From Patescibacteria group bacterium (GTDB lineage Bacteria; Patescibacteriota; Patescibacteriia; GWA2-46-9), in NCBI GenBank assembly GCA_041675205.1, contig JBAYUF010000002.1, positions 68,568 through 132,567 of the forward strand: 64,000 bases of DNA, given 5' to 3'. The number at the start of each line of letters is the position of its first letter. Position 1 is the stretch's first letter. The notes beneath the pieces were generated by a model. The model ran no database searches. It was not told where the DNA came from and saw nothing but the letters and a program-made list of their open reading frames with translations. The position numbers and the translations under genes were made by a program. Positions 2,052-29,401 of the stretch are shown here, piece after piece.

Positions 2052-3059
2052 TTACTGGCGTTTCGGTATAAAGGTAGCCGCGAAGGCGTTGGCGATGAAC
2101 GAGGTTACTTCGGATTCTGAAAAAATAGCATGATGCAATAAGTAGTTGAGTTCGGCGGCCAGATTTGTTTCATACATTTCCGGCCCATCAGTATTGATAG
2201 TCAATTTTACCCCGGCTTGGTGCAGTGTTTGATAGGCGCGGCGTTGCTCATTGAGGGTTTTAAATACACCAACTCGCATATTAGAAGTTGGACATACCTC
2301 TAAAGTGATGCCAGCTTCTTTGATGAGCCCCATCAGTTTTTTGTCTCGATAGGCATTGACCCCATGACCTATGCGTGACGGCGCTATTTTCTTAATGACG
2401 AGTTCAAGCTCTTTTAATGATCCCTCTTCACCAGTATGGATAGTAACGCCGAGCCCTTTTGCTTTGGCAGCACAGAACAGATCAACGTACTGCGCCATTT
2501 TAAATGCGGCTAGTTGTGGACCGGCAACGTCAATACCGATGACGCCGCGATGTTGATACTTGAGAGCTTTTTCGTAAATGATTTCGTTTTGTCGGTAGGT
2601 AAATTCTCGGTCAAGCATCAAAATGATGCCAGCGCGCACATCTGGATATTCGAGCATAGCGCGTTCCAGGCCACGAATAGAGGCATGGATAATATAGTCT
2701 AGGTCTCGTTCTCCGTTCCGATTGCGTTTCATCGGGTTGAAGCGAATCTCATGGAGTACGATATTGTGTGAGCGGTACGCACCACCGATAGTCTGGTGTA
2801 CGGCGGGTTCCATTGCCACTGGTGACGATTGAATGAGCTCGGTCCAGTGGTACTTCGCTCGATCGATTTCTTTGAAACTTTTGTAGTTTCGTTTTACCGT
2901 AACCATGTCTTCAAACTCCCAGTAGTTTTTCGTAGGGAGACGAATACCTTGATCGTGTGCGAGCGTCCACAATACAGCCGCATCGGCCGCGCCACCAACG
3001 TGTGTGTGAAGTTCAGCGAGGGGTAATTTTGCAAAGGGCGACGGTTTTTTTTCTGTCAT
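2052..3059 (-). CDS. add: adenosine/adenine deaminase family metal-dependent hydrolase
   Basis: 335 aa. HTHVGG metal-binding start and an INTDGPE motif typical of the adenosine deaminase fold. Lies between guaB and guaA. Confidence 0.65.
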   Translation of the reverse strand: MTEKKPSPFAKLPLAELHTHVGGAADAAVLWTLAHDQGIRLPTKNYWEFEDMVTVKRNYKSFKEIDRAKYHWTELIQSSPVAMEPAVHQTIGGAYRSHNIVLHEIRFNPMKRNRNGERDLDYIIHASIRGLERAMLEYPDVRAGIILMLDREFTYRQNEIIYEKALKYQHRGVIGIDVAGPQLAAFKMAQYVDLFCAAKAKGLGVTIHTGEEGSLKELELVIKKIAPSRIGHGVNAYRDKKLMGLIKEAGITLEVCPTSNMRVGVFKTLNEQRRAYQTLHQAGVKLTINTDGPEMYETNLAAELNYLLHHAIFSESEVTSFIANAFAATFIPKRQ

Positions 3060-3061
3060 AG

Positions 3062-4123
3062 TTAGTTATAATTGGGAGCTTGTTTTTCTATCTGAATAGT
3101 ATGCGGGTGGCTTTCGGCTCTGCCGGCTGGGGTAATGCGAATGAAATGTTTACTGCACTGCATCAGTTGAGGGATTGTGGAGACTCCAACATAGCCCATG
3201 CCAGCCTTTAGTCCACCGATGAGTTGATACACCGTGTCGGCGAGAGGGCCTTTATACGGAACAATACCCTCGACACCTTCAGGTACGTATTTTTTCATTC
3301 CTTTTTGGCCATAGCGGTCAGAGCTCTCACCAATCTGCATGGCGCCTAATGAACCCATGCCGCGATACCGTTTAACTTTCTTGCCGTTCAGTAAGGTTGT
3401 ATCCCCTGGGGCTTCGTCAGTTCCTGCAAATAATGAGCCAAGCATCACTGCCGCCGCGCCGCCAGCAATAGCTTTGACTATGTCTCCCGAATAACGAATG
3501 CCACCGTCAGCAATAACCGTAATTCGATTTCCTTTGACGGCTTCTGCCACCAGTATAATGGCCGTTAGTTGTGGTACGCCGACGCCGGCAACAACACGCG
3601 TCGTGCAGATAGCGCCCGGGCCGACGCCAACCTTGAGTGCATCAACGTACGGCGCAAAAGCACGGGCAGCCGCGGCCGTTGCTATGTTGCCTACAATCAA
3701 GTTAGCGTGCACTTTTTTTCGCAGCGTTTTTACATCCTTAAGGATACTTGGTTTGTGCACGTGGGCGGAATCAACGACGATTGCGTCGATGCCCACCGCG
3801 TCTAGCGCCAACGCTCGCTCACTATCGTGTGGTCCAATTGCTGCGGCAACAAGACATCCGGCTTTTTTGACGGTTCGCACCATGGCGACCTGTTCTGGAA
3901 TCGTACAATTACGATGCAACACCCCGAGACCCCCCAATCGCGCAATGGCAATGGCCATGTTGGCGCCCGTTACGGTGTCCATGGCGGCTGAAAGCAAAGG
4001 AATAGAGAGCTGAATATTTGGTGTGAGTTTGGTCGTAGTAATGGCGGTGCTGGGCGAGACCTCAGACAATTGAGGCACCAGCAGAACGTCATCAAAGGTG
4101 AGACCAAGCGGCAGTGTTTTCAT
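3062..4123 (-). CDS. guaB: IMP dehydrogenase lacking the CBS/Bateman subdomain
   Basis: N-terminus [11 protein letters not shown]...SAAMDTVT...VKK runs directly into the catalytic barrel ([11 protein letters not shown] ... [19 protein letters not shown]). 353 aa, so no room for CBS pairs. Confidence 0.8.
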
Positions 4124-7835: not shown

Positions 7836-8798
7836 TTATTTTTTATTGTGAAATGCTTCGTGCACCCGGCGCAGTTCGCTATCTGTAAGATGGGTGTAAA
7901 TTTGCGTCGTCGTAATTGATGCGTGACCAAGCAGACTCTGCACCGAACGCACATCCGCGCCGTTTATGAGTAGGTCGGTGGCAAAAGAATGACGAAGGGT
8001 ATGCGGTGTCACCTGTTTCATAATACCGGCGACGCGGGCATATTTTTGAAGAAGCCGTTCAATGGAGCGGGGCGTTAGCGGCGCACCGCCTTCTTTTTTT
8101 GCCCGATCGTTTTGAATTTTGCCAGCACGGTCGTGTCGGACAAATAGATAGGGTGAAACATCGTGCCGTTCGGCCAGGTACGACTTTACATACGCCCGTG
8201 CGTCTGGCGACAAAAAAACAACACGAATTTTTGAACCTTTTCCTCGCACACTGAGTTCCGTTAGGGAACCATTGGTTGGTTCACGGGTGCTCACCTGCTC
8301 TCGTTTAAGGTTTGTCAACTCAGAGACACGTAGACCGGTCGAAAAAAGAACGGTCAGCATAGCAGCATCACGCAGTAGGGTCAGTTTTGGCTGCGGTACT
8401 CGTCCTGGCGCAGCGAGTAAGCGCTGTAGTTCTTCGCCGGTCAGAAATGAAATACTGCGGTCAGGCATTTTCATGAGTTCAATCTTTTCTGGTGCCAAGC
8501 TGGCCACATCTCGTTTGGCTAAATATTTTAGCAACGTGCGCAGCGCAATGAGGTGATAGTTTTGCGTGTTCTTTTTAAGTGCTTCGCCGTGAGTATCAGT
8601 AAAGCGATTGAGCCAGAGTCGGTATTGGCGAATATGTTCTGGTGTAATGCGGTTCGTGTTTGTGACACTGTGTTCCTCTGACCAGTCAGCGAAACGATTG
8701 AGGTAGAAGCGGTAATTGCGAATAGTCGCCGCGCTGCGGTTTTTTTCAATCTCCAGGTATTCCAAAAAATCTTGAATGTAGTCTTTGAGATTTGCCAT
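7836..8798 (-). CDS. xerC: site-specific tyrosine recombinase XerC/XerD family
   Basis: C-terminal catalytic motifs HTLRHSFAT...LLGHASITTTQIYTHL. Start taken at MANLKDY (inner Met). Confidence 0.85.
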   Translation of the reverse strand: MANLKDYIQDFLEYLEIEKNRSAATIRNYRFYLNRFADWSEEHSVTNTNRITPEHIRQYRLWLNRFTDTHGEALKKNTQNYHLIALRTLLKYLAKRDVASLAPEKIELMKMPDRSISFLTGEELQRLLAAPGRVPQPKLTLLRDAAMLTVLFSTGLRVSELTNLKREQVSTREPTNGSLTELSVRGKGSKIRVVFLSPDARAYVKSYLAERHDVSPYLFVRHDRAGKIQNDRAKKEGGAPLTPRSIERLLQKYARVAGIMKQVTPHTLRHSFATDLLINGADVRSVQSLLGHASITTTQIYTHLTDSELRRVHEAFHNKK

Positions 8799-8904
8799 AG
8801 TGAATATTGTACGACACGGAAAGGCCATACGCTATATGCTGTAAGGTTTTTGATAGTGGTAGGGTGAGCCAAAAAGCACCCCCTTTTTTAAGTTATTTTA
8901 AAAA

Positions 8905-9184: not shown

Positions 9185-9640
9185 TTACATTGTCCGCGAG
9201 GTTGCGACTTCTAGGCCCTTGGCGAAAAGGCCGACACTTACCGCCATGGTCAGGTACGCCGCGACCTGCCAGATGTTTGGCAGGGTACCGCCGTCGGCCA
9301 GTTTGATGACGCTGGCGATGATGGGGACGAGCATCAGGATGCCCGTTACCGTGGCTACATCGCCGCCAGTGTTGTAGGCGGCAACGGTAAACCAATCAGC
9401 CCAAAAATAGGCTATTCCCATCGCACCCGCGATGTACAGGTTGCCGCCCTGCGGCCAAATGATCGGCGTTCCCGTCGACCATTTGTAGGCCAAAATGGCC
9501 AGGACTACGGGCAGCATCGCTATGTAAAAGCAAAGCAGCACGGCAGTCGGGGTGAGCTCTTTGAGCCGCATCTCGATGACGGCACTCTGCGTGCCGTAAA
9601 GCACAGCGCCGATGAGGGCGTACAGCGTTGCCTTGTTCAT
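9185..9640 (-). CDS. small 4-TM membrane protein, EamA/DMT-like
   Basis: 151 aa with four hydrophobic helices. Sits in a high-GC patch. Confidence 0.4.
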   Translation of the reverse strand: MNKATLYALIGAVLYGTQSAVIEMRLKELTPTAVLLCFYIAMLPVVLAILAYKWSTGTPIIWPQGGNLYIAGAMGIAYFWADWFTVAAYNTGGDVATVTGILMLVPIIASVIKLADGGTLPNIWQVAAYLTMAVSVGLFAKGLEVATSRTM

Positions 9641-9800: not shown

Positions 9801-9829
9801 TTGACAACCCCAGCAATATTGCCTATACT
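9801..9829 (+). promoter_or_regulatory. sigma70-type promoter for rpsO
   Basis: TTGACA, 17-nt spacer, TATACT, about 115 nt upstream of the rpsO start. Confidence 0.6.
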
Positions 9830-9944
9830 GGTCTCTCGCGTACGTTTTTATATATGAGAGGACGCGCTCCCGCACGGGCGCTCGGTGTATTGGGTACGGT
9901 CTTACCCTGCACTTGGCAAACCGACGATTAAACGAACAGAGCCT

Positions 9945-10337
9945 ATGCTCGACAAGAAAGCGAAAGACCGAATTATTAAAAAGTTTCGTACCCATGAGTC
10001 TGATACGGGCTCGAGTCAGGTGCAGATTGCAATACTGACGTCAGAGATTAAAGACCTGACGGATCACTTGAAGACGCACCGTAAAGATCACTCGTCTCGT
10101 CGAGGCCTATTAAAAAAAGTGGGAGAGCGTCGTCGATTATTGCGTTACCTTGAACATGAGGATCCGCAAGCTTTCGAGCAGCTCGTGAAGCAACTAAAAC
10201 TTAAAATTGCCAAGCGCTACGATCAAAAGACTATCGAGGCAGCTGAAGCAGCGCACGACGCTGAAGTAGAAGCCGAGGCAGAAGCTGAGGCTGAAGCCGA
10301 AGCAATGGCAAAAGATGCTGACGACGAAATAGACTAG
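9945..10337 (+). CDS. rpsO: ribosomal protein S15 with C-terminal acidic EA-repeat extension
   Basis: Core S15 (FRTHESDTGS ... HSSRRGLLKKVGERRRLLRYL) plus a roughly 40-aa tail ending AEVEAEAEAEAEAEAMAKDADDEID. Start taken at MLDKK. Confidence 0.85.
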   Translation: MLDKKAKDRIIKKFRTHESDTGSSQVQIAILTSEIKDLTDHLKTHRKDHSSRRGLLKKVGERRRLLRYLEHEDPQAFEQLVKQLKLKIAKRYDQKTIEAAEAAHDAEVEAEAEAEAEAEAMAKDADDEID

Positions 10338-10343
10338 ACATAG

Positions 10344-10895
10344 ATGATTAAACATAGTGAGCAGCGGGTTGGCGTCTTAGTAGACGTCGCCAACATGTAT
10401 CATTCAGCGAAAAATTTGTTTGGTAGCCGGTTGAACTTCAAGGCAATGTTAGACGCCGCGGTGGGTGGGCGACGCTTGACGCGTGCCATTGCCTACGCGA
10501 TTAAGTCTGATTCAGAAGAAGAGGTTTCTTTTTTTGAAGCTTTGGACAAATCGGGATTCGAAGTGAAAACGAAAGATCTGCAGATTTTTTCTAGCGGCGC
10601 TAAGAAAGCTGACTGGGATGTTGGTATCGCTATTGATGCGGTGACGTTGGCGTCGAAAGTTGATGTCATCGTTCTCGTTACTGGTGACGGAGATTTCATT
10701 CCGCTCGTTGAGTATCTACAGATGCGAGGGCTACTGGTTGAAGCCATTGGTTTCGGCGAAACGACATCGGGCGGCCTAAAAGCTGCGGTGGACGATTATA
10801 TAGATTTGTCGAGCGATAAACGGCAGTACCTCATGCGCTCGCGGTTAGCCATGAAAGCAAAAACAGATAGCAAAACAAAAACGGAGACGCCGTAA
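10344..10895 (+). CDS. NYN/LabA-like domain protein, putative ribonuclease
   Basis: VGVLVDVANMYHS ... VIVLVTGDGDFIPLVEYLQMRGLLVEAIGF matches the DUF88/NYN pattern. Located between rpsO and pnp. Confidence 0.65.
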   Translation: MIKHSEQRVGVLVDVANMYHSAKNLFGSRLNFKAMLDAAVGGRRLTRAIAYAIKSDSEEEVSFFEALDKSGFEVKTKDLQIFSSGAKKADWDVGIAIDAVTLASKVDVIVLVTGDGDFIPLVEYLQMRGLLVEAIGFGETTSGGLKAAVDDYIDLSSDKRQYLMRSRLAMKAKTDSKTKTETP

Positions 10896-11012
10896 TTTTA
10901 TTTATTACCGCACTGCGTATCATGAGCAGGTGGTAGCTACGCTAGTTTTCCGAAATAGTTCGGGCAACTCGTGTACCTACCACACGAATGACGCACAGTT
11001 GCGGATGAAAGA

Positions 11013-13214
11013 ATGTCTATGCAAGAAGCAGCAGTCGGCGCGACAATACGCCGCGAAGTAACCTGGGGCGGAAGAACGCTTCAGATTGAGTTTGGTAAAT
11101 TGGCGAAGCAGGCAACAGCCTCAGCCACGGTTCGCTATGGCGAGACCGTTGTGCTCGCCACAGTAGTGATGAGTCCAGACGTTCGTGAAGGAATGGAATA
11201 TTTTCCACTCACTGTCGAGTACGAAGAACGGTTTTACGCCGCAGGTAAAATTAAAGGGTCACGCTTCATTAAACGAGAAGGCCGACCATCAGACGAAGCG
11301 ACGTTAACAGCTCGTTTAGTTGACCGTTCAATTCGGCCGCTGTTTGACGACCGCATGCGAAACGACATCCAAGTCGTGGTGACGGTGCTTTCTTTTGATG
11401 GAGAGAACGACCCGAGTATTCCTGCATTAGTTGGTTCTTCGTTAGTACTCGCGCTTTCACCCATTCCTTGGGCTGGTCCCTTAGCAGGCATTCGTGTTGG
11501 TCGGGTGAATGGGCAGTGGATTGCAAATCCAACGATTAAAGAATTAGAAGAGAGCGACGTTGACCTCGTCGTTGCTGGAACACGCGACCGCGTGACAATG
11601 ATTGAGGCTGGCGCCAAGGAAATTACCGAAGATGATTTTTTTGCCGGTATCAATTTTGGTCAAGCACAACTGCTTCCAGCCCTAGAGTTGATAAACGAAC
11701 TAACTGCAAGTCATGCGGTTGAAAAGATTGACGTTGCCGCGTTGCTGGCTGATGAGGCGGTTTTGGAGCCAGAACTTGCCGAACGAGTACGCACCTGGAG
11801 CAGGGCGGAGATTCGTAGCCGATTCTTTAGCGACAAAACAGCAACGAAACGAAATCGTAAAGAAGTACTCGCTACTATAAAGGATGAACTGGAGGCGCAG
11901 CTCGTGACGGATCAAATTGGCAAAGAGCGTCGGGCTGTTGCCAAAGCGTTATTCTACGAAATTGTCGAAGAAGAAATTACCCGAGCGGCTATTGAGGATA
12001 AGCGTCGAGTCGATGGGCGCGCGCTCGACGAGATTCGACCGCTTTCCGTCGAGGTTGGACTACTACCACGCACACACGGTTCAGGTTTGTTCAATCGCGG
12101 TGAGACGCAAGTACTTTCAGTGGTAACGCTTGGTTCACCGGGTGACGAACAGATACTCGATACGATGTCGCTTAACACAAAGAAGCGTTATCTTCACTTC
12201 TATAACTTCCCACCGTTCTCGGTTGGCGAGGCTGGACGAATGTCAGGACCAAAGCGTCGTGAAATTGGTCATGGTGCACTGGCTGAGAAAGCACTCATTC
12301 CAGTACTTCCAACAAAAGAAATATTCCCGTACACGACGTTAGTCGTCTCGGAAGTTTTGGGTTCCAATGGTTCCTCATCGATGGGTTCAGTGTGTGGTTC
12401 GACGTTGGCGTTAATGGATGCCGGCGTACCACTCACCGCACCAGTGGCTGGGGTGGCTATGGGTCTTGCCTCAGACGAGGCTGGTCGCTATGTCATTTTG
12501 ACTGACCTGCAAGATTTAGAAGATGGAAAAGGCGGCATGGATTTTAAAGTGGCAGGATCAAAAAATGGAATCACTGCCGTGCAGATGGATACAAAGACAA
12601 ACGGACTGACAAGCGCAATGATTGAAGAGACGTTGACCGCCGCACGCATTGGCAGAATGAAGATACTCGATGTCATGACGAACGTCATCGCGGCGCCTCG
12701 AAGCGAAATGTCGGCGCATGCCCCGCGCATCATTACTGTTAAAATTAATCCGGAACGCATTCGCGACCTTATTGGTCCCGGCGGAAAGATGATTAATGAA
12801 ATTATCGACAAGACGGGCGTCACCATTGATGTTGAGCAAGACGGCACGGTCTTTATCGCTTCCCCAAATGCCGACGGCCTAGAGCAGGCGGTAACGTGGG
12901 TAAAGAATTTAACGCGAGATGTTGTGGCTGGGGAATTCTATGAAGGGAAAGTAACGCGACTCATGGACTTCGGTGCCTTCGTAGAAATCCTTCCAAAGAA
13001 GGAAGGGCTAGTGCACATTTCAGAGATGGCGCCGTACCGAGTAAATAAAGTTGAAGACATTCTTTCGGTTGGGAAAGACGTGCGGGTTAAGGTCATTGAA
13101 ATTGATGAGCTTGGCCGCACTAATCTTTCGTTGAAGCAAGCGAATCCGCCAGAGTGGTTTCCACCAGCGCCAGCAGGGAGCGACGCACCGCGTGACAAAC
13201 GTCGCGATAGTTAA
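11013..13214 (+). CDS. pnp: polyribonucleotide nucleotidyltransferase
   Basis: 733 aa: two RNase PH domains, then a KH domain (IGPGGKMINEI), then a C-terminal S1 domain. Confidence 0.9.
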   Translation: MSMQEAAVGATIRREVTWGGRTLQIEFGKLAKQATASATVRYGETVVLATVVMSPDVREGMEYFPLTVEYEERFYAAGKIKGSRFIKREGRPSDEATLTARLVDRSIRPLFDDRMRNDIQVVVTVLSFDGENDPSIPALVGSSLVLALSPIPWAGPLAGIRVGRVNGQWIANPTIKELEESDVDLVVAGTRDRVTMIEAGAKEITEDDFFAGINFGQAQLLPALELINELTASHAVEKIDVAALLADEAVLEPELAERVRTWSRAEIRSRFFSDKTATKRNRKEVLATIKDELEAQLVTDQIGKERRAVAKALFYEIVEEEITRAAIEDKRRVDGRALDEIRPLSVEVGLLPRTHGSGLFNRGETQVLSVVTLGSPGDEQILDTMSLNTKKRYLHFYNFPPFSVGEAGRMSGPKRREIGHGALAEKALIPVLPTKEIFPYTTLVVSEVLGSNGSSSMGSVCGSTLALMDAGVPLTAPVAGVAMGLASDEAGRYVILTDLQDLEDGKGGMDFKVAGSKNGITAVQMDTKTNGLTSAMIEETLTAARIGRMKILDVMTNVIAAPRSEMSAHAPRIITVKINPERIRDLIGPGGKMINEIIDKTGVTIDVEQDGTVFIASPNADGLEQAVTWVKNLTRDVVAGEFYEGKVTRLMDFGAFVEILPKKEGLVHISEMAPYRVNKVEDILSVGKDVRVKVIEIDELGRTNLSLKQANPPEWFPPAPAGSDAPRDKRRDS

Positions 13215-13240
13215 TTAGAGAAGGTAGCGTGAACAAAAAG

Positions 13241-13267
13241 CCACCCTCCCCATAGCGGGGAGGGTGG
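13241..13267 (+). terminator. GC-rich hairpin after pnp
   Basis: CCACCCTCCCC-ATAGC-GGGGAGGGTGG. The U-tract is weak (TGTGG). Confidence 0.5.
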
Positions 13268-13779
13268 TGTGGATAAGGTTGGGTATAACTTGGGATTCAT
13301 TTGCGACTAACTATTCCTCATCAGGCCAAACAATAGTATTTTGTTCGTAAAAGTAAGGTTGTTTTGTCGGCTGTTTCATGCTATACTATGTTCAGTTCAT
13401 TAAAAGAATAAACAAAGAGCAAAGGAGCTGTGGTCCGAATATTGTTTCGGTACACTGCTCCCCCTACTACACCGAAAAGGTGCGATACAAACACCCGTCT
13501 GCGCACCTGAACCAACAAAAATAAAAAGCCCTCAATCAATGAGGAAAAGGTGATCACTCGTGTTCGCAATGTCGACCGAGTTACACCACTAAGGTCGGTA
13601 GCGGGGTGCTCTTACGTTTATGACGGGGAAACGCCTTCGGGTTATTAGCCAAAAATTTTCACTACTGCCACCGGCGGTTATGAAATGGGCTACGAACCCG
13701 CGAGAGGCGCATCACGCCACATTATTACATAGGGCGCTCGATGCGCCTCTTCACATTTCCGGATGATTTTAGCTTCCTG

Positions 13780-13808
13780 TTGCTCTCTTGCAAGCAGTGC
13801 CGTATACT
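13780..13808 (+). promoter_or_regulatory. candidate promoter for the DksA-like gene
   Basis: TTGCTC, 17-nt spacer, TATACT. Confidence 0.4.
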
Positions 13809-28864: not shown

Positions 28865-29401
28865 TTGTTCAGACTGAGGATTATGCAAACAAATGTGCCC
28901 CACATTATTCTTGATATTGAAACCACGGGTTTCCGGTGGGATGGCGGCGATGAAATCGTTGAGCTCGCTGGCGAGCGATTAGTGGGCGGTGTTGTCGTCG
29001 ACACATTTCATTCGTACATGACGCCGTTTCGTCCTGTGCCGCTTGACGCCAGTAGAATTCACGGCCTCACGACCGATTTTTTGCGCGAACAAGGGGTGCC
29101 TCCACGAGTTGCACTGCAACAGTTTGCTGACTTCATTGGAAACGGTATTTGGGTGGGGCATAATGTGCGTCGGTTTGATTATCCGTTTGTGGCCTATGCC
29201 TTTGAAGAATACGGCGTTACCTATGCGAAACATCCTACAATTGTCGACACACTAGAACTTGCTCGGCAACATTTAAAACTCCCAAATTACCGGCTGGGGT
29301 CGGTCGCAATGCATTTCGGCATTAATAGCGATGGTGCTCACCGGGCAGGTCGAGATGTTGAGATAACGAGGGAGGTCTTTTTAAAACTAAGCCTTCATTG
29401 A
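28865..29401 (+). CDS. DnaQ-like 3'-5' exonuclease (DEDDh)
   Basis: ILDIETTGF ... HNVRRFDYPF ... HRAGRD. Confidence 0.7.
   Translation: MFRLRIMQTNVPHIILDIETTGFRWDGGDEIVELAGERLVGGVVVDTFHSYMTPFRPVPLDASRIHGLTTDFLREQGVPPRVALQQFADFIGNGIWVGHNVRRFDYPFVAYAFEEYGVTYAKHPTIVDTLELARQHLKLPNYRLGSVAMHFGINSDGAHRAGRDVEITREVFLKLSLH

Follow-up and report, generated by a model that had tools for sequence, protein, structure and literature searches.

A LabA-like NYN gene, predicted to encode an endoribonuclease, between rpsO and pnp in Patescibacteria

Background

The genes for ribosomal protein S15 (rpsO) and polynucleotide phosphorylase (PNPase, pnp) form a well described pair. In the E. coli operon model only the antisense sraG lies between them, and a long stem-loop in the pnp leader controls PNPase synthesis (PMC5029454). 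The GU/GC motif of the S15 binding site has been described as well (PMC4684408).

Small NYN-domain proteins are known from quite different settings. VPA0982 of Vibrio parahaemolyticus (PDB 2QIP; NYN.COG1432/PF01936) is a single-domain protein of 165 aa that entered the database through structural genomics, and has no known function and no known link to rpsO or pnp. In Vibrio these two genes are presumably adjacent, as in E. coli. Rae1/YacP of Bacillus subtilis (PF05991 NYN_YacP), a small NYN-group endoribonuclease encoded among translation genes, works with the ribosome. The NYN.COG1432 group is listed as a whole as "function unknown", with one to five active-site residues kept (Matelska et al. 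2017, PMC5499597). Divalent-metal-dependent cleavage has been shown experimentally only for two proteins, which cut single-stranded RNA (ssRNA) without sequence specificity, MARF1 and the B. fragilis NYN protein (PMC6217404; Chi & White 2024). Alanine substitutions at the four conserved aspartates of MARF1 abolish cleavage of ssRNA (PMC6217404); the B. fragilis enzyme is a Mn2+-dependent, non-specific ssRNA nuclease, and its D13A mutant is inactive (Chi & White 2024). Residues D14, D92 and D115 of VPA0982 correspond to D13, D118 and D143 of the B. fragilis protein and to D358, D426 and D452 of human MARF1 (Chi & White 2024).

Here we describe a NYN gene found in a 64,000-nt stretch of a Patescibacteria genome (lineage GWA2-46-9), referred to as the window. 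It encodes 183 aa and lies between rpsO and pnp, an arrangement that a preliminary description had called plausible but undescribed; our literature search likewise found no paper describing a NYN gene in this position. From sequence comparisons, we consider the chances about even that the gene encodes an active, stand-alone LabA-like NYN endoribonuclease and has become fixed in the rpsO-pnp operon of Parcubacteria and ABY1-type Patescibacteria, where it is inherited vertically.

The rpsO-NYN-pnp locus

The three genes lie on the plus strand in the order rpsO (9945-10337, 130 aa), NYN (10344-10895) and pnp (11013-13214, 733 aa). The open reading frames and the Pfam and TIGR models agree on their identities, as the preliminary description had them. 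S15 matches Pfam Ribosomal_S15 (E 3e-31, aa 7-86) and TIGR00952 (118.4 bits against a cutoff of 63.65, aa 4-87), its 42-aa tail lying outside the model; the pnp product, with two RNase PH domains, KH and S1, scores 899 bits against the TIGR03591 cutoff of 525. Thus rpsO and pnp are not adjacent in the window, being separated by a 552-nt gene, and the same is true of 64 of 80 relatives.

The block has a single strong promoter-like site, of sigma-70 type, TTGACA-17-TATACT (9801-9829, plus strand), which matches the consensus at 11 of 12 positions. The near-consensus promoter reported earlier therefore exists, but it is located 5' of rpsO and not directly 5' of the NYN gene. TTGACA/TATACT-like boxes are also visible 5' of rpsO in relatives. 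A second plus-strand site at 9949 (9/12) falls within rpsO, and the intergenic regions contain no further good promoter-like site and no terminator-like site on the plus strand. Unlike the E. coli operon, the window has neither the rpsO terminator t1 nor the separate pnp promoter P2. The close spacing and the single promoter fit co-transcription of the three genes, and since only 6 nt separate the rpsO stop from the NYN start, S15 and NYN translation are probably coupled. Paceibacteria-type relatives have an rpsO-NYN spacer of 85-330 nt that opens with a terminator-like hairpin; in these the NYN gene may share a transcript with pnp or have one of its own. A GC-rich 12-bp palindromic hairpin just 3' of pnp (13241-13267, strand not assigned), followed by a T-run on the minus strand only, is the likely end of the transcription unit. 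An unclassified structured RNA of ~370 nt was also seen downstream of pnp.

Conservation of the gene order

At least 593 species genomes encode a relative of the NYN protein. The best 80 of these, all Patescibacteria, were compared. rpsO lies directly 5' of the NYN gene on the same strand in 78 of the 80 (77 by tblastn, plus L062, whose rpsO is N-masked), and pnp lies directly 3' in 64; the homologues are 52-80% identical and come from many candidate phyla. Six more close relatives show the same order, xerC/D, rpsO NYN pnp ... zf-DksA/TraR lspA yifB. The synteny proposed as a check in the preliminary description is thus found in relatives, but its word "inserted" does not hold for an arrangement common to the whole clade. 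Judged by this gene order, the NYN gene is an old, clade-wide operon member and not a local insertion.

Linkage to rpsO is at least as tight as linkage to pnp. Among 76 loci with enough sequence, pnp has left about 12, each with at least 2.2 kb of downstream sequence, and rpsO-NYN has stayed; in seven of these, three of them Pfam-confirmed, the genes that normally follow pnp come soon after the NYN gene. Because the pnp linkage is not obligatory, a PNPase-dependent role is not proven, and because rpsO-pnp adjacency is itself ancient, a gene between the two could be retained partly by operon inertia. The protein matches S15 in its degree of conservation: across 63 loci the median identity to the window proteins is 60.2% for NYN, 60.5% for S15 and 51.2% for PNPase, NYN exceeding PNPase in 62 of the 63.

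These data bear on the most probable alternative, a role for the NYN protein in maturing ribosomes or rRNA instead of in decay, in which it would be made in stoichiometry with S15 and would trim or check 16S precursors or nascent 30S subunits. The logic would be analogous to that of the PIN-domain protein Nob1 of archaea and eukaryotes or of the ribosome-associated Rae1/YacP. The tight rpsO link (6 nt in the window, median 15 nt in lineages whose S15 bears a tail), its persistence where pnp has left the locus, and a conservation equal to that of a ribosomal protein all point this way. So do the NYN C-terminal tails, which are nearly always net basic across relatives, as in many RNA- or ribosome-binding proteins. 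The exceptional loci also have translation or rRNA neighbours: a tRNA and rpsD (L080), a TlyA-like S4+FtsJ methyltransferase and SpoU (L091), and nusA/tyrS (L088). tRNA and rRNA maturation genes have been noted near bacterial NYN genes (PMC5499597). On the other hand, a distant homologue (L087, 47% identity) abuts or overlaps pnp with no rpsO nearby, and nothing ties the protein to a specific rRNA site. It also has no sequence kinship to Nob1 or YacP, Pfam returning PF01936 only and no PF05991; Rae1/YacP, from another Pfam family and another operon context, serves as a functional analogy. A dedicated maturation role is a tentative and rather unlikely reading, and it does not exclude a role in decay. 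PNPase, for its part, is also active in rRNA quality control.

Fold and active site of the NYN protein

The window protein matches PF01936 over nearly the entire profile (aa 8-155 against positions 1-144 of 145; E 4.6e-34, 118.5 bits against a gathering cutoff of 24.2). Its sole sequence relative in the PDB is 2QIP (profile E 2.6e-35), to which it is 33% identical; VPA0982 is similarly a single domain, although the proteins of the candidate phyla radiation (CPR) form a much more tightly conserved clade. The archaeal TIGR00288 proteins are of similar length and show weak full-length similarity (E 9.7e-08, aa 4-159 against profile 20-159), but the window protein falls outside this family, scoring 32 bits where the cutoff is 178.45.

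In an AlphaFold2 model (pLDDT 86, pTM 0.80) strands alternate with helices, giving a PIN-like alpha/beta/alpha fold whose beta-sheet is parallel, like that of 2QIP; the last 20 aa, which are basic, are modelled poorly. Foldseek places 2QIP first (TM 0.80/0.90), and the MARF1 NYN structures 5YAA and 6FDL also match (TM about 0.6/0.73), at fold level only, with 16-18% identity. The PIN-like RNase fold predicted earlier is borne out by this model.

The active-site motifs are present: D14, with DxxN, closes beta-1, D92 opens helix 3, and an S/T-x-D motif (T113-G-D115 in the window protein) follows beta-4. In the HMM alignment D14, D92 and D115 coincide with the identically numbered residues of VPA0982, and it is through VPA0982 that the match to the B. 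fragilis aspartates runs. Conservation of the catalytic aspartates, another check proposed at the outset, is complete: D14, N17, D90, D92, D98, D115 and D117 are invariant in 81 of 81 NYN sequences, and S/T113 is kept in 77. Neither of the sequence findings named there as counting against the idea, loss of these acidic residues and absence from relatives, was borne out. No residue invariant among the 81 corresponds to the second acidic position of MARF1 (D215, end of beta-2).

By sequence and model, then, the 183-aa reading frame encodes a true NYN/LabA-like protein of the PIN fold, its catalytic aspartates conserved. Since the fold and the aspartate constellation are shared with the B. fragilis and MARF1 enzymes, the same mechanism can be predicted, that of a metal-dependent endoribonuclease. 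There are differences from both. MARF1 needs its LOTUS domains for substrate, whereas the CPR protein has just a short basic tail; the B. fragilis gene belongs to a type III CRISPR locus and the CPR gene to a housekeeping operon.

Could the protein instead be a regulatory, non-catalytic LabA-like protein that binds RNA or another partner without cutting? Cyanobacterial LabA is known from a regulatory phenotype alone, its COG1432 group carries no assigned function (PMC5499597), and of the four acidic positions of MARF1 one lacks a conserved equivalent here. Yet the core aspartates shared by 2QIP, the B. fragilis protein and MARF1, the asparagine of DxxN and the S/T-x-D motif are invariant or nearly so in 81 sequences from several classes, a pattern expected of an enzyme and not of a degenerate binding module, and we regard a non-catalytic protein as improbable.

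A mobile, toxin or defence-type nuclease that happened to land between rpsO and pnp is highly improbable. PADLOC gives a domain-level match to PDLC01154, "LabA-like protein, NYN family nuclease" (E 1.2e-14), the opposite strand encodes a tyrosine recombinase (7836-8828) at a distance of ~1.1 kb upstream, and NYN proteins occur in type III CRISPR loci (Chi & White 2024). The PADLOC match is partial, however (104 positions, aa 57-160 against 197-300 of a 310-position profile), the neighbours are housekeeping genes with no defence genes nearby, and relatives share the gene order, the XerC/D-like recombinase included; the gene has the same position in 78 of 80 species from many candidate phyla, at the identities given above.

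RNA elements of the transcript

The NYN-pnp spacer (10895-11014, plus strand) folds as one long imperfect hairpin of 47 bp that reaches from the stop codon of the NYN gene into the AUG of pnp, whose first two bases it includes. Its minimum free energy is -49.2 kcal/mol (z -4.4), and none of 200 shuffles was as stable. In 44 related loci the spacers have a median z of -5.7, with z below -2 in 39; compared with pnp coding controls the medians are -5.25 and -0.03 (p 1.6e-16). In 43 of the 44 loci, positions -14 to -4 relative to the inferred start of pnp are base-paired, and the hairpin is predicted to occlude the translation-initiation region of pnp. By analogy to the E. coli pnp leader, a long stem-loop cleaved by RNase III, we infer a processing or translational-control element for pnp. 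It differs from the E. coli element in taking in the pnp start codon. The hairpin, being double-stranded, is an unlikely substrate for a single-strand-specific NYN enzyme.

The rpsO leader (9871-9929, plus strand) contains a covarying helix, found in nine close relatives, that is closed by tandem G9884.U9913 and G9885-C9912 pairs below a variable apical hairpin. The GU/GC tandem is invariant in all nine and has the same orientation as the S15 site in helix 22 of 16S rRNA. Across these relatives 90.9% of cells are paired against 79.7% in shuffles, a value reached by none of 500, and pairing drops to 29-42% when the partner is slid; six of the 11 pairs show compensatory changes, in nine sequences only. 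The single-sequence fold has a z of only -0.4, a covariance model (R1) matches just the same nine loci, and no three-way-junction mimic was identified in the nine relatives. Nor does the leader match Rfam, including any S15 family, and it is not the E. coli pseudoknot. It is a candidate S15-binding autoregulatory element, and rpsO may be autoregulated here, as in E. coli, through a GU/GC-containing leader (PMC4684408).

The acidic tail of S15

S15 consists of a core (aa 1-88) and an acidic extension of 42 aa (aa 89-130, 10209-10334) with 38% D+E and 33% A, in agreement with the (EA)n extension of about 40 aa described before. The (EA)n part is encoded by an imperfect 6/12-nt tandem repeat (10268-10304, plus strand), in which Tandem Repeats Finder counts 3.1 copies at period 12 and 5.8 at period 6. 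Structure prediction makes the tail helical over aa 94-125, with low confidence (pLDDT 55-69). The lengths of S15 fall into two classes, 86-90 aa in 43 of 75 proteins and 104-135 aa in the other 32. The tails of relatives have a median of 37% D+E and net charges of -1 to -15, and since (EA)3 or longer is absent from all 32, the (EA)n form is, by this comparison, unique to the window genome among the S15s compared.

That the acidic tail docks the basic NYN tail on the ribosome, as adjacency of the genes, the opposite charges and the shorter rpsO-NYN gaps of tailed lineages (median 15 against 91 nt) might suggest, is scarcely credible, because the 43 loci whose S15 has no tail still keep the NYN gene and tail charges do not correlate (Spearman rho -0.005, p 0.96), tail lengths doing so weakly and negatively (rho -0.25, p 0.03). 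The acidic tail characterises a single lineage and is unconnected with the NYN gene.

Proposed mechanism

The reading we favour, that of an active endoribonuclease in an inherited operon, suggests the following scheme. A single promoter would produce a transcript beginning with the leader that bears the S15-type GU/GC helix. rpsO would be translated first and, in coupled fashion, the NYN gene 6 nt on; pnp would come last, its ribosome-binding region hidden by the hairpin filling the spacer. The NYN protein would cut ssRNA with Mg2+ or Mn2+, like MARF1 and the B. fragilis enzyme, in housekeeping RNA processing or decay. Its internal cuts would generate 3' ends for PNPase, and one mRNA would thus, we infer, encode a two-enzyme module. 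A stronger version, in which NYN is the main decay-initiating or processing endoribonuclease of Parcubacteria-type CPR and forms with PNPase a minimal two-component "degradosome" on the autoregulated mRNA of S15, is unlikely, though worth stating for its consequences.

Compared with E. coli, rpsO lies 5' of pnp on one strand and a long stem-loop occupies the pnp leader, but a whole extra putative RNase gene stands between rpsO and that leader. A very distant lineage has retained the classical architecture, the structured leader of pnp and possibly an S15-binding leader of rpsO, while making room for the extra gene.

Significance

How the candidate phyla radiation processes and degrades its RNA has hardly been studied, and our literature search found no paper on the subject. 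A NYN nuclease as conserved as a ribosomal protein, encoded between S15 and PNPase, is a concrete candidate for a core RNase of these bacteria, and, judging from its sequence, probably a housekeeping enzyme that cuts RNA and has so far escaped notice. At least 78 species-level lineages carry it at the S15 locus, which gives the large COG1432 family its first housekeeping context. The protein is small and soluble-looking, with clear active-site mutants, and is amenable to biochemistry though its hosts are uncultured. If the "degradosome" version were true, one operon would couple RNA turnover to ribosome synthesis in these tiny cells, and the NYN proteins would constitute a family of housekeeping RNases that has so far gone unrecognised in bacteria.

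Organization of the predicted rpsO-NYN-pnp operon

The ORF list and the sequence of the window place three co-oriented genes on the forward strand: rpsO (9945-10337; 130 aa), the NYN gene (10344-10895; 183 aa), and pnp (11013-13214; 733 aa). Ribosomal protein S15 matches Pfam S15 (E 3e-31 over residues 7-86) and TIGR00952 (118 bits against a cutoff of 64), the NYN protein matches PF01936 (118.5 bits against a cutoff of 24), and PNPase matches TIGR03591 (899 bits). ORFs and curated models bear out the preliminary description, which had placed the NYN gene between rpsO and pnp. The gap from the rpsO stop to the NYN start is 6 nt. A near-consensus promoter-like site (TTGACA-17-TATACT) lies 5' of rpsO at 9801-9829 (+), and a scan of the forward strand between the three genes found neither a second good promoter-like site nor a terminator-like site. 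The preliminary description had put the NYN gene itself under this promoter; the site exists but lies upstream of rpsO, and the predicted promoter is assigned to the whole rpsO-NYN-pnp block, not to the NYN gene alone.

A paralogue search found no second NYN gene in the window. The sole other nuclease-like gene in the 64 kb encodes a 178-aa RNase_T/DnaQ-family exonuclease (28865-29401, +), and genes for RNase III, Y, J or E/G are absent from this stretch. A 151-aa membrane-like ORF without a Pfam match occupies 9185-9640. In its place, one close relative (L081) carries a divergent second NYN paralogue (2940-3452, -; 170 aa, 26% identity), just 5' of rpsO and on the opposite strand.

Conservation of the arrangement in Patescibacteria

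The best 120 homologues of the NYN protein are 56-87% identical and, with few exceptions, are 165-205 aa long and come from Parcubacteria or Patescibacteria. A scan taking one genome per species found a NYN relative encoded in at least 593 genomes. Its best 80 loci are all from Patescibacteria and represent Uhr-, Buchanan-, Falkow-, Magasanik-, Nomura-, Yonath-, Kaiser-, Wolfe-, Taylor- and Sungbacteria, Paceibacteria, and Minisyncoccia. The synteny analysis covered these best 80 loci together with six more close relatives and five distant homologues, all fetched separately, and the phylogenetic range given for the arrangement is accordingly approximate.

In tblastn searches with the window proteins as queries, a co-oriented S15 gene immediately precedes NYN in 77 of the 80 loci, or 78 counting one (L062) in which rpsO is masked by N, and a co-oriented PNPase gene lies downstream in 64. 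All six closer relatives have the order of the window: a xerC/D-like recombinase gene (-), then rpsO, NYN, pnp, a gap of ~600 nt, zf-DksA/TraR, lspA, and yifB/comM (+). The NYN gene is therefore an old, vertically inherited member of the operon. The synteny check thus came out in favor of the arrangement, and the word "inserted", used in the preliminary description, is wrong for this genome. The conserved block in Uhrbacteria-like relatives extends from 7836-8828 (-) through 16165 (+), including the structured RNA after pnp; its first gene encodes an XerC/D-type tyrosine recombinase and the yifB/comM-like gene an Mg-chelatase ATPase. Because this wider block is conserved, the recombinase gene is regarded as a resident and not as a sign of a mobile element.

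The NYN protein is also highly conserved. Where all three genes are present (63 loci), NYN and S15 have median identities to their window counterparts of 60.2% and 60.5%, respectively, and PNPase one of 51.2%; NYN is better conserved than PNPase in 62 of these loci. When a library clustered at 50% identity was searched, 176 representatives were found at E 1e-30 versus 4174 at E 1e-3, so the CPR clade forms a tight, slowly evolving branch within a family of great size and diversity. By these sequence measures, the CPR clade has the profile of a core housekeeping gene.

Linkage to both rpsO and pnp

Sixteen of the 80 loci lack a downstream pnp; four of these end at a contig edge and 12 have at least 2.2 kb of downstream sequence. 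In seven of the 12, NYN is followed by one hypothetical gene and then by DksA/TraR-type zinc-finger and YifB-like genes, the same genes that lie 3' of pnp in the window (confirmed by Pfam in L038, L063, and L066). Thus, pnp left these loci while rpsO-NYN stayed. The converse also occurs: in L087 (4001-6612), a 47%-identical homologue abuts or overlaps pnp with no rpsO nearby. Since both pnp-less and rpsO-less loci exist, the NYN gene is the hinge of the rpsO-pnp pair, linked to both partners. Still more divergent homologues (41-46% identity) have different neighbors, in several cases with a link to translation or rRNA: nusA-clpP-tyrS (L088), a TlyA-like S4+FtsJ rRNA methyltransferase gene directly before NYN with SpoU nearby (L091, 3117-4579), and a tRNA and rpsD (S4) on either side of NYN (L080, 5001-6207).

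The C-terminal extension of S15

The EA-repeat tail of S15 reported in the preliminary description is real: it is 42 aa long with 38% D+E and 33% A. S15 lengths at 75 loci are bimodal, 86-90 aa in 43 and 104-135 aa in 32, the long forms being Uhr-, Buchanan-, Falkow-, or Magasanikbacteria-like. In the long tails, a common KLKIAKK-type continuation leads into acidic, low-complexity sequence (pooled tail residues 31% E, 14% K; median D+E per tail 37%). The (EA)n run of the window S15 derives from a 6/12-nt tandem repeat, and none of the 32 other long tails has such a run. In a single-sequence AlphaFold2 model the tail is a single long helix, predicted with low confidence (S15 pLDDT 65). Co-evolution of the acidic S15 tail with the basic NYN tail was considered and rejected (charge rho -0.005, p 0.96). 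The S15 tail is independent of the NYN gene, because S15s without a tail keep the NYN gene and neither the length nor the charge of the tail covaries positively with the mostly basic NYN C-terminal tail. The C-terminus of S15 lies near inter-subunit bridge B4, and as speculation the subunit interface could be within reach of a helical, acidic extension.

Predicted RNA elements of the operon

A candidate S15-binding helix lies in the rpsO leader (9871-9929, +) and is common to nine close relatives (the window, L001, L002, and L081-L086, in each case upstream of rpsO). Six of its 11 pairs show compensatory changes, and 90.9% of the alignment cells are paired versus 79.7% in shuffles and 29-42% in slid controls. 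All nine keep the tandem G.U/G-C that closes the helix (G9884.U9913 and G9885-C9912) unchanged. In helix 22 of 16S rRNA, S15 has a GU/GC motif as its secondary recognition site, and the E. coli rpsO mRNA mimics this motif (PMC4684408). Because of this resemblance the element is a plausible S15 autoregulatory leader, a proposal built on nine sequences; given the 6-nt gap, such a leader would gate NYN synthesis too. A home-made covariance model trained on the nine, whose E-values are rough, matched only its training sequences among 87 sources; the leader is clade-restricted or too divergent elsewhere. Its single-sequence fold is unremarkable (z -0.4). Rfam found two tRNAs and nothing else in the window at gathering thresholds, and even at E up to 10 the operon and the region 3' of pnp produced nothing above noise, with no match to an S15 leader family.

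Paceibacteria-type loci (L020, L027, L031, L032, L037, L040, L041, L050, L057, L067, and L069) have rpsO-NYN spacers of 85-330 nt with a terminator-like GC hairpin at the start and a recurrent TTTTTAATA motif that precedes the NYN start by 30-100 nt. The motif may be the promoter or UP element of a separate NYN(-pnp) transcription unit. Hairpin and motif together indicate that transcription architecture differs between lineages.

The whole 117-nt NYN-pnp spacer folds into one imperfect 47-bp hairpin (10895-11014, +; MFE -49.2 kcal/mol, z -4.4), which spans from the NYN stop codon to the first two bases of the pnp AUG. Alignment of nine spacers with MAFFT and RNAalifold gave zero consensus pairs. 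Because they align too poorly, support for structure comes from per-locus fold z-scores with coding controls and not from covariation. The spacers of related loci are unusually structured (median z -5.7; z < -2 in 39 of 44) when compared with same-length windows inside pnp (median z -0.03; p 1.6e-16). In 43 of 44 loci the bases immediately 5' of the inferred pnp start are paired, an approximate count since starts were extrapolated from tblastn. The hairpin resembles the long stem-loop in the leader of E. coli pnp, where RNase III cleavage starts PNPase autoregulation (PMC5029454). It is more likely a target of a double-strand RNase or a translational gate than a substrate of NYN, since proven NYN enzymes prefer single strands.

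The gap between pnp and zf-DksA/TraR (13215-13787) contains a putative structured RNA of about 370 nt (13390-13765, +), also present in L081-L085; the length and sequence of this ~570-nt spacer are conserved in relatives. The RNA comes with a separate promoter-like site, whose TATACT is invariant, and its terminal GC stem leads into a U-run. In the RNAalifold prediction, 69 pairs form nine helices and 32 of the pairs show compensatory changes; 87% of cells are paired versus 41-47% with the partner slid, and none of 500 shuffles pairs as well. Two hairpins and an A-rich linker lie inside a long-range helix. This conserved non-coding region yielded no tmRNA with ARAGORN, and the RNA has no Rfam family and no convincing ORF. 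It would be either an unclassified ncRNA or a long cis-leader.

Active site and proposed function of the NYN protein

Sequence, fold, and active site all place the protein in Pfam NYN/NYN.COG1432. Three other assignments were rejected: TIGR00288 (score below cutoff), the PADLOC defence NYN family (a partial, domain-level match), and NYN_YacP. Mean column identity in an alignment of 18 diverse homologues is 62%, and D14, N17, D90, D92, D98, D115, and D117 are invariant in 81 sequences, 77 of which have S or T at position 113. In the PDB there is a single sequence relative, 2QIP (VPA0982; E 2.6e-35); the window residues D14 (DVxN motif), D92 (DWDVG), and D115 (GDGDF) align with D14, D92, and D115 of VPA0982. 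These correspond to D13, D118, and D143 of B. fragilis NYN and to D358, D426, and D452 of human MARF1 (Chi & White). The B. fragilis enzyme is an Mn2+-dependent, sequence-nonspecific ssRNA nuclease inactivated by D13A (Chi & White). Alanine at four conserved aspartates abolishes ssRNA cleavage by mouse MARF1, in which N181 and S270, equivalent to N17 and T113 of the window protein, are also conserved (PMC6217404). One of the four acidic positions of MARF1, at the end of beta-2, has no invariant equivalent in the 81 sequences. The AlphaFold2 model (pLDDT 86, pTM 0.80) has an alternating beta/alpha pattern and matches 2QIP (TM 0.80/0.90) and then the MARF1 NYN domain (TM about 0.6/0.73). The C-terminal tails are 1-53 aa long, nearly all of them with a net basic charge; a few of the long ones (L033, L067, L070, and P0120) share an acidic terminal "VGSDTDD"-like motif, which might be a short docking motif.

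The proposed check on the catalytic aspartates was passed, D14, D92, and D115 being present in all 81 sequences, and this conservation pattern points to an enzyme. We give about an even chance to the following reading: the NYN protein, translated from one mRNA together with S15 and PNPase, would be a stand-alone endoribonuclease that depends on metal and cuts single strands; it would serve the housekeeping processing or decay of RNA, its internal cuts supplying 3' ends for PNPase. The main rival, possible though on balance unlikely, is an S15-linked role in ribosome or rRNA maturation; it draws on the tighter linkage to rpsO and on the translation-related surroundings of distant homologues. 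Neither role excludes the other. A non-catalytic regulator is improbable beside the invariant aspartates. A mobile or defence nuclease, set against vertical inheritance, and a docking partner of the S15 tail, set against the independence of that tail, can be given hardly any weight.

NYN.COG1432 is listed as "function unknown", with only scattered neighbourhoods such as SpoU and RNase T (Matelska et al. 2017, PMC5499597). Literature searches on NYN with rpsO/pnp, CPR, Parcubacteria, or COG1432 located no description of a NYN gene within rpsO-pnp, in keeping with the earlier claim that the arrangement is undescribed, and a search for RNase inventories in Patescibacteria located none. What is new is a classical rpsO-pnp operon with a third conserved, predicted RNase gene, in a lineage of unexplored RNA metabolism.
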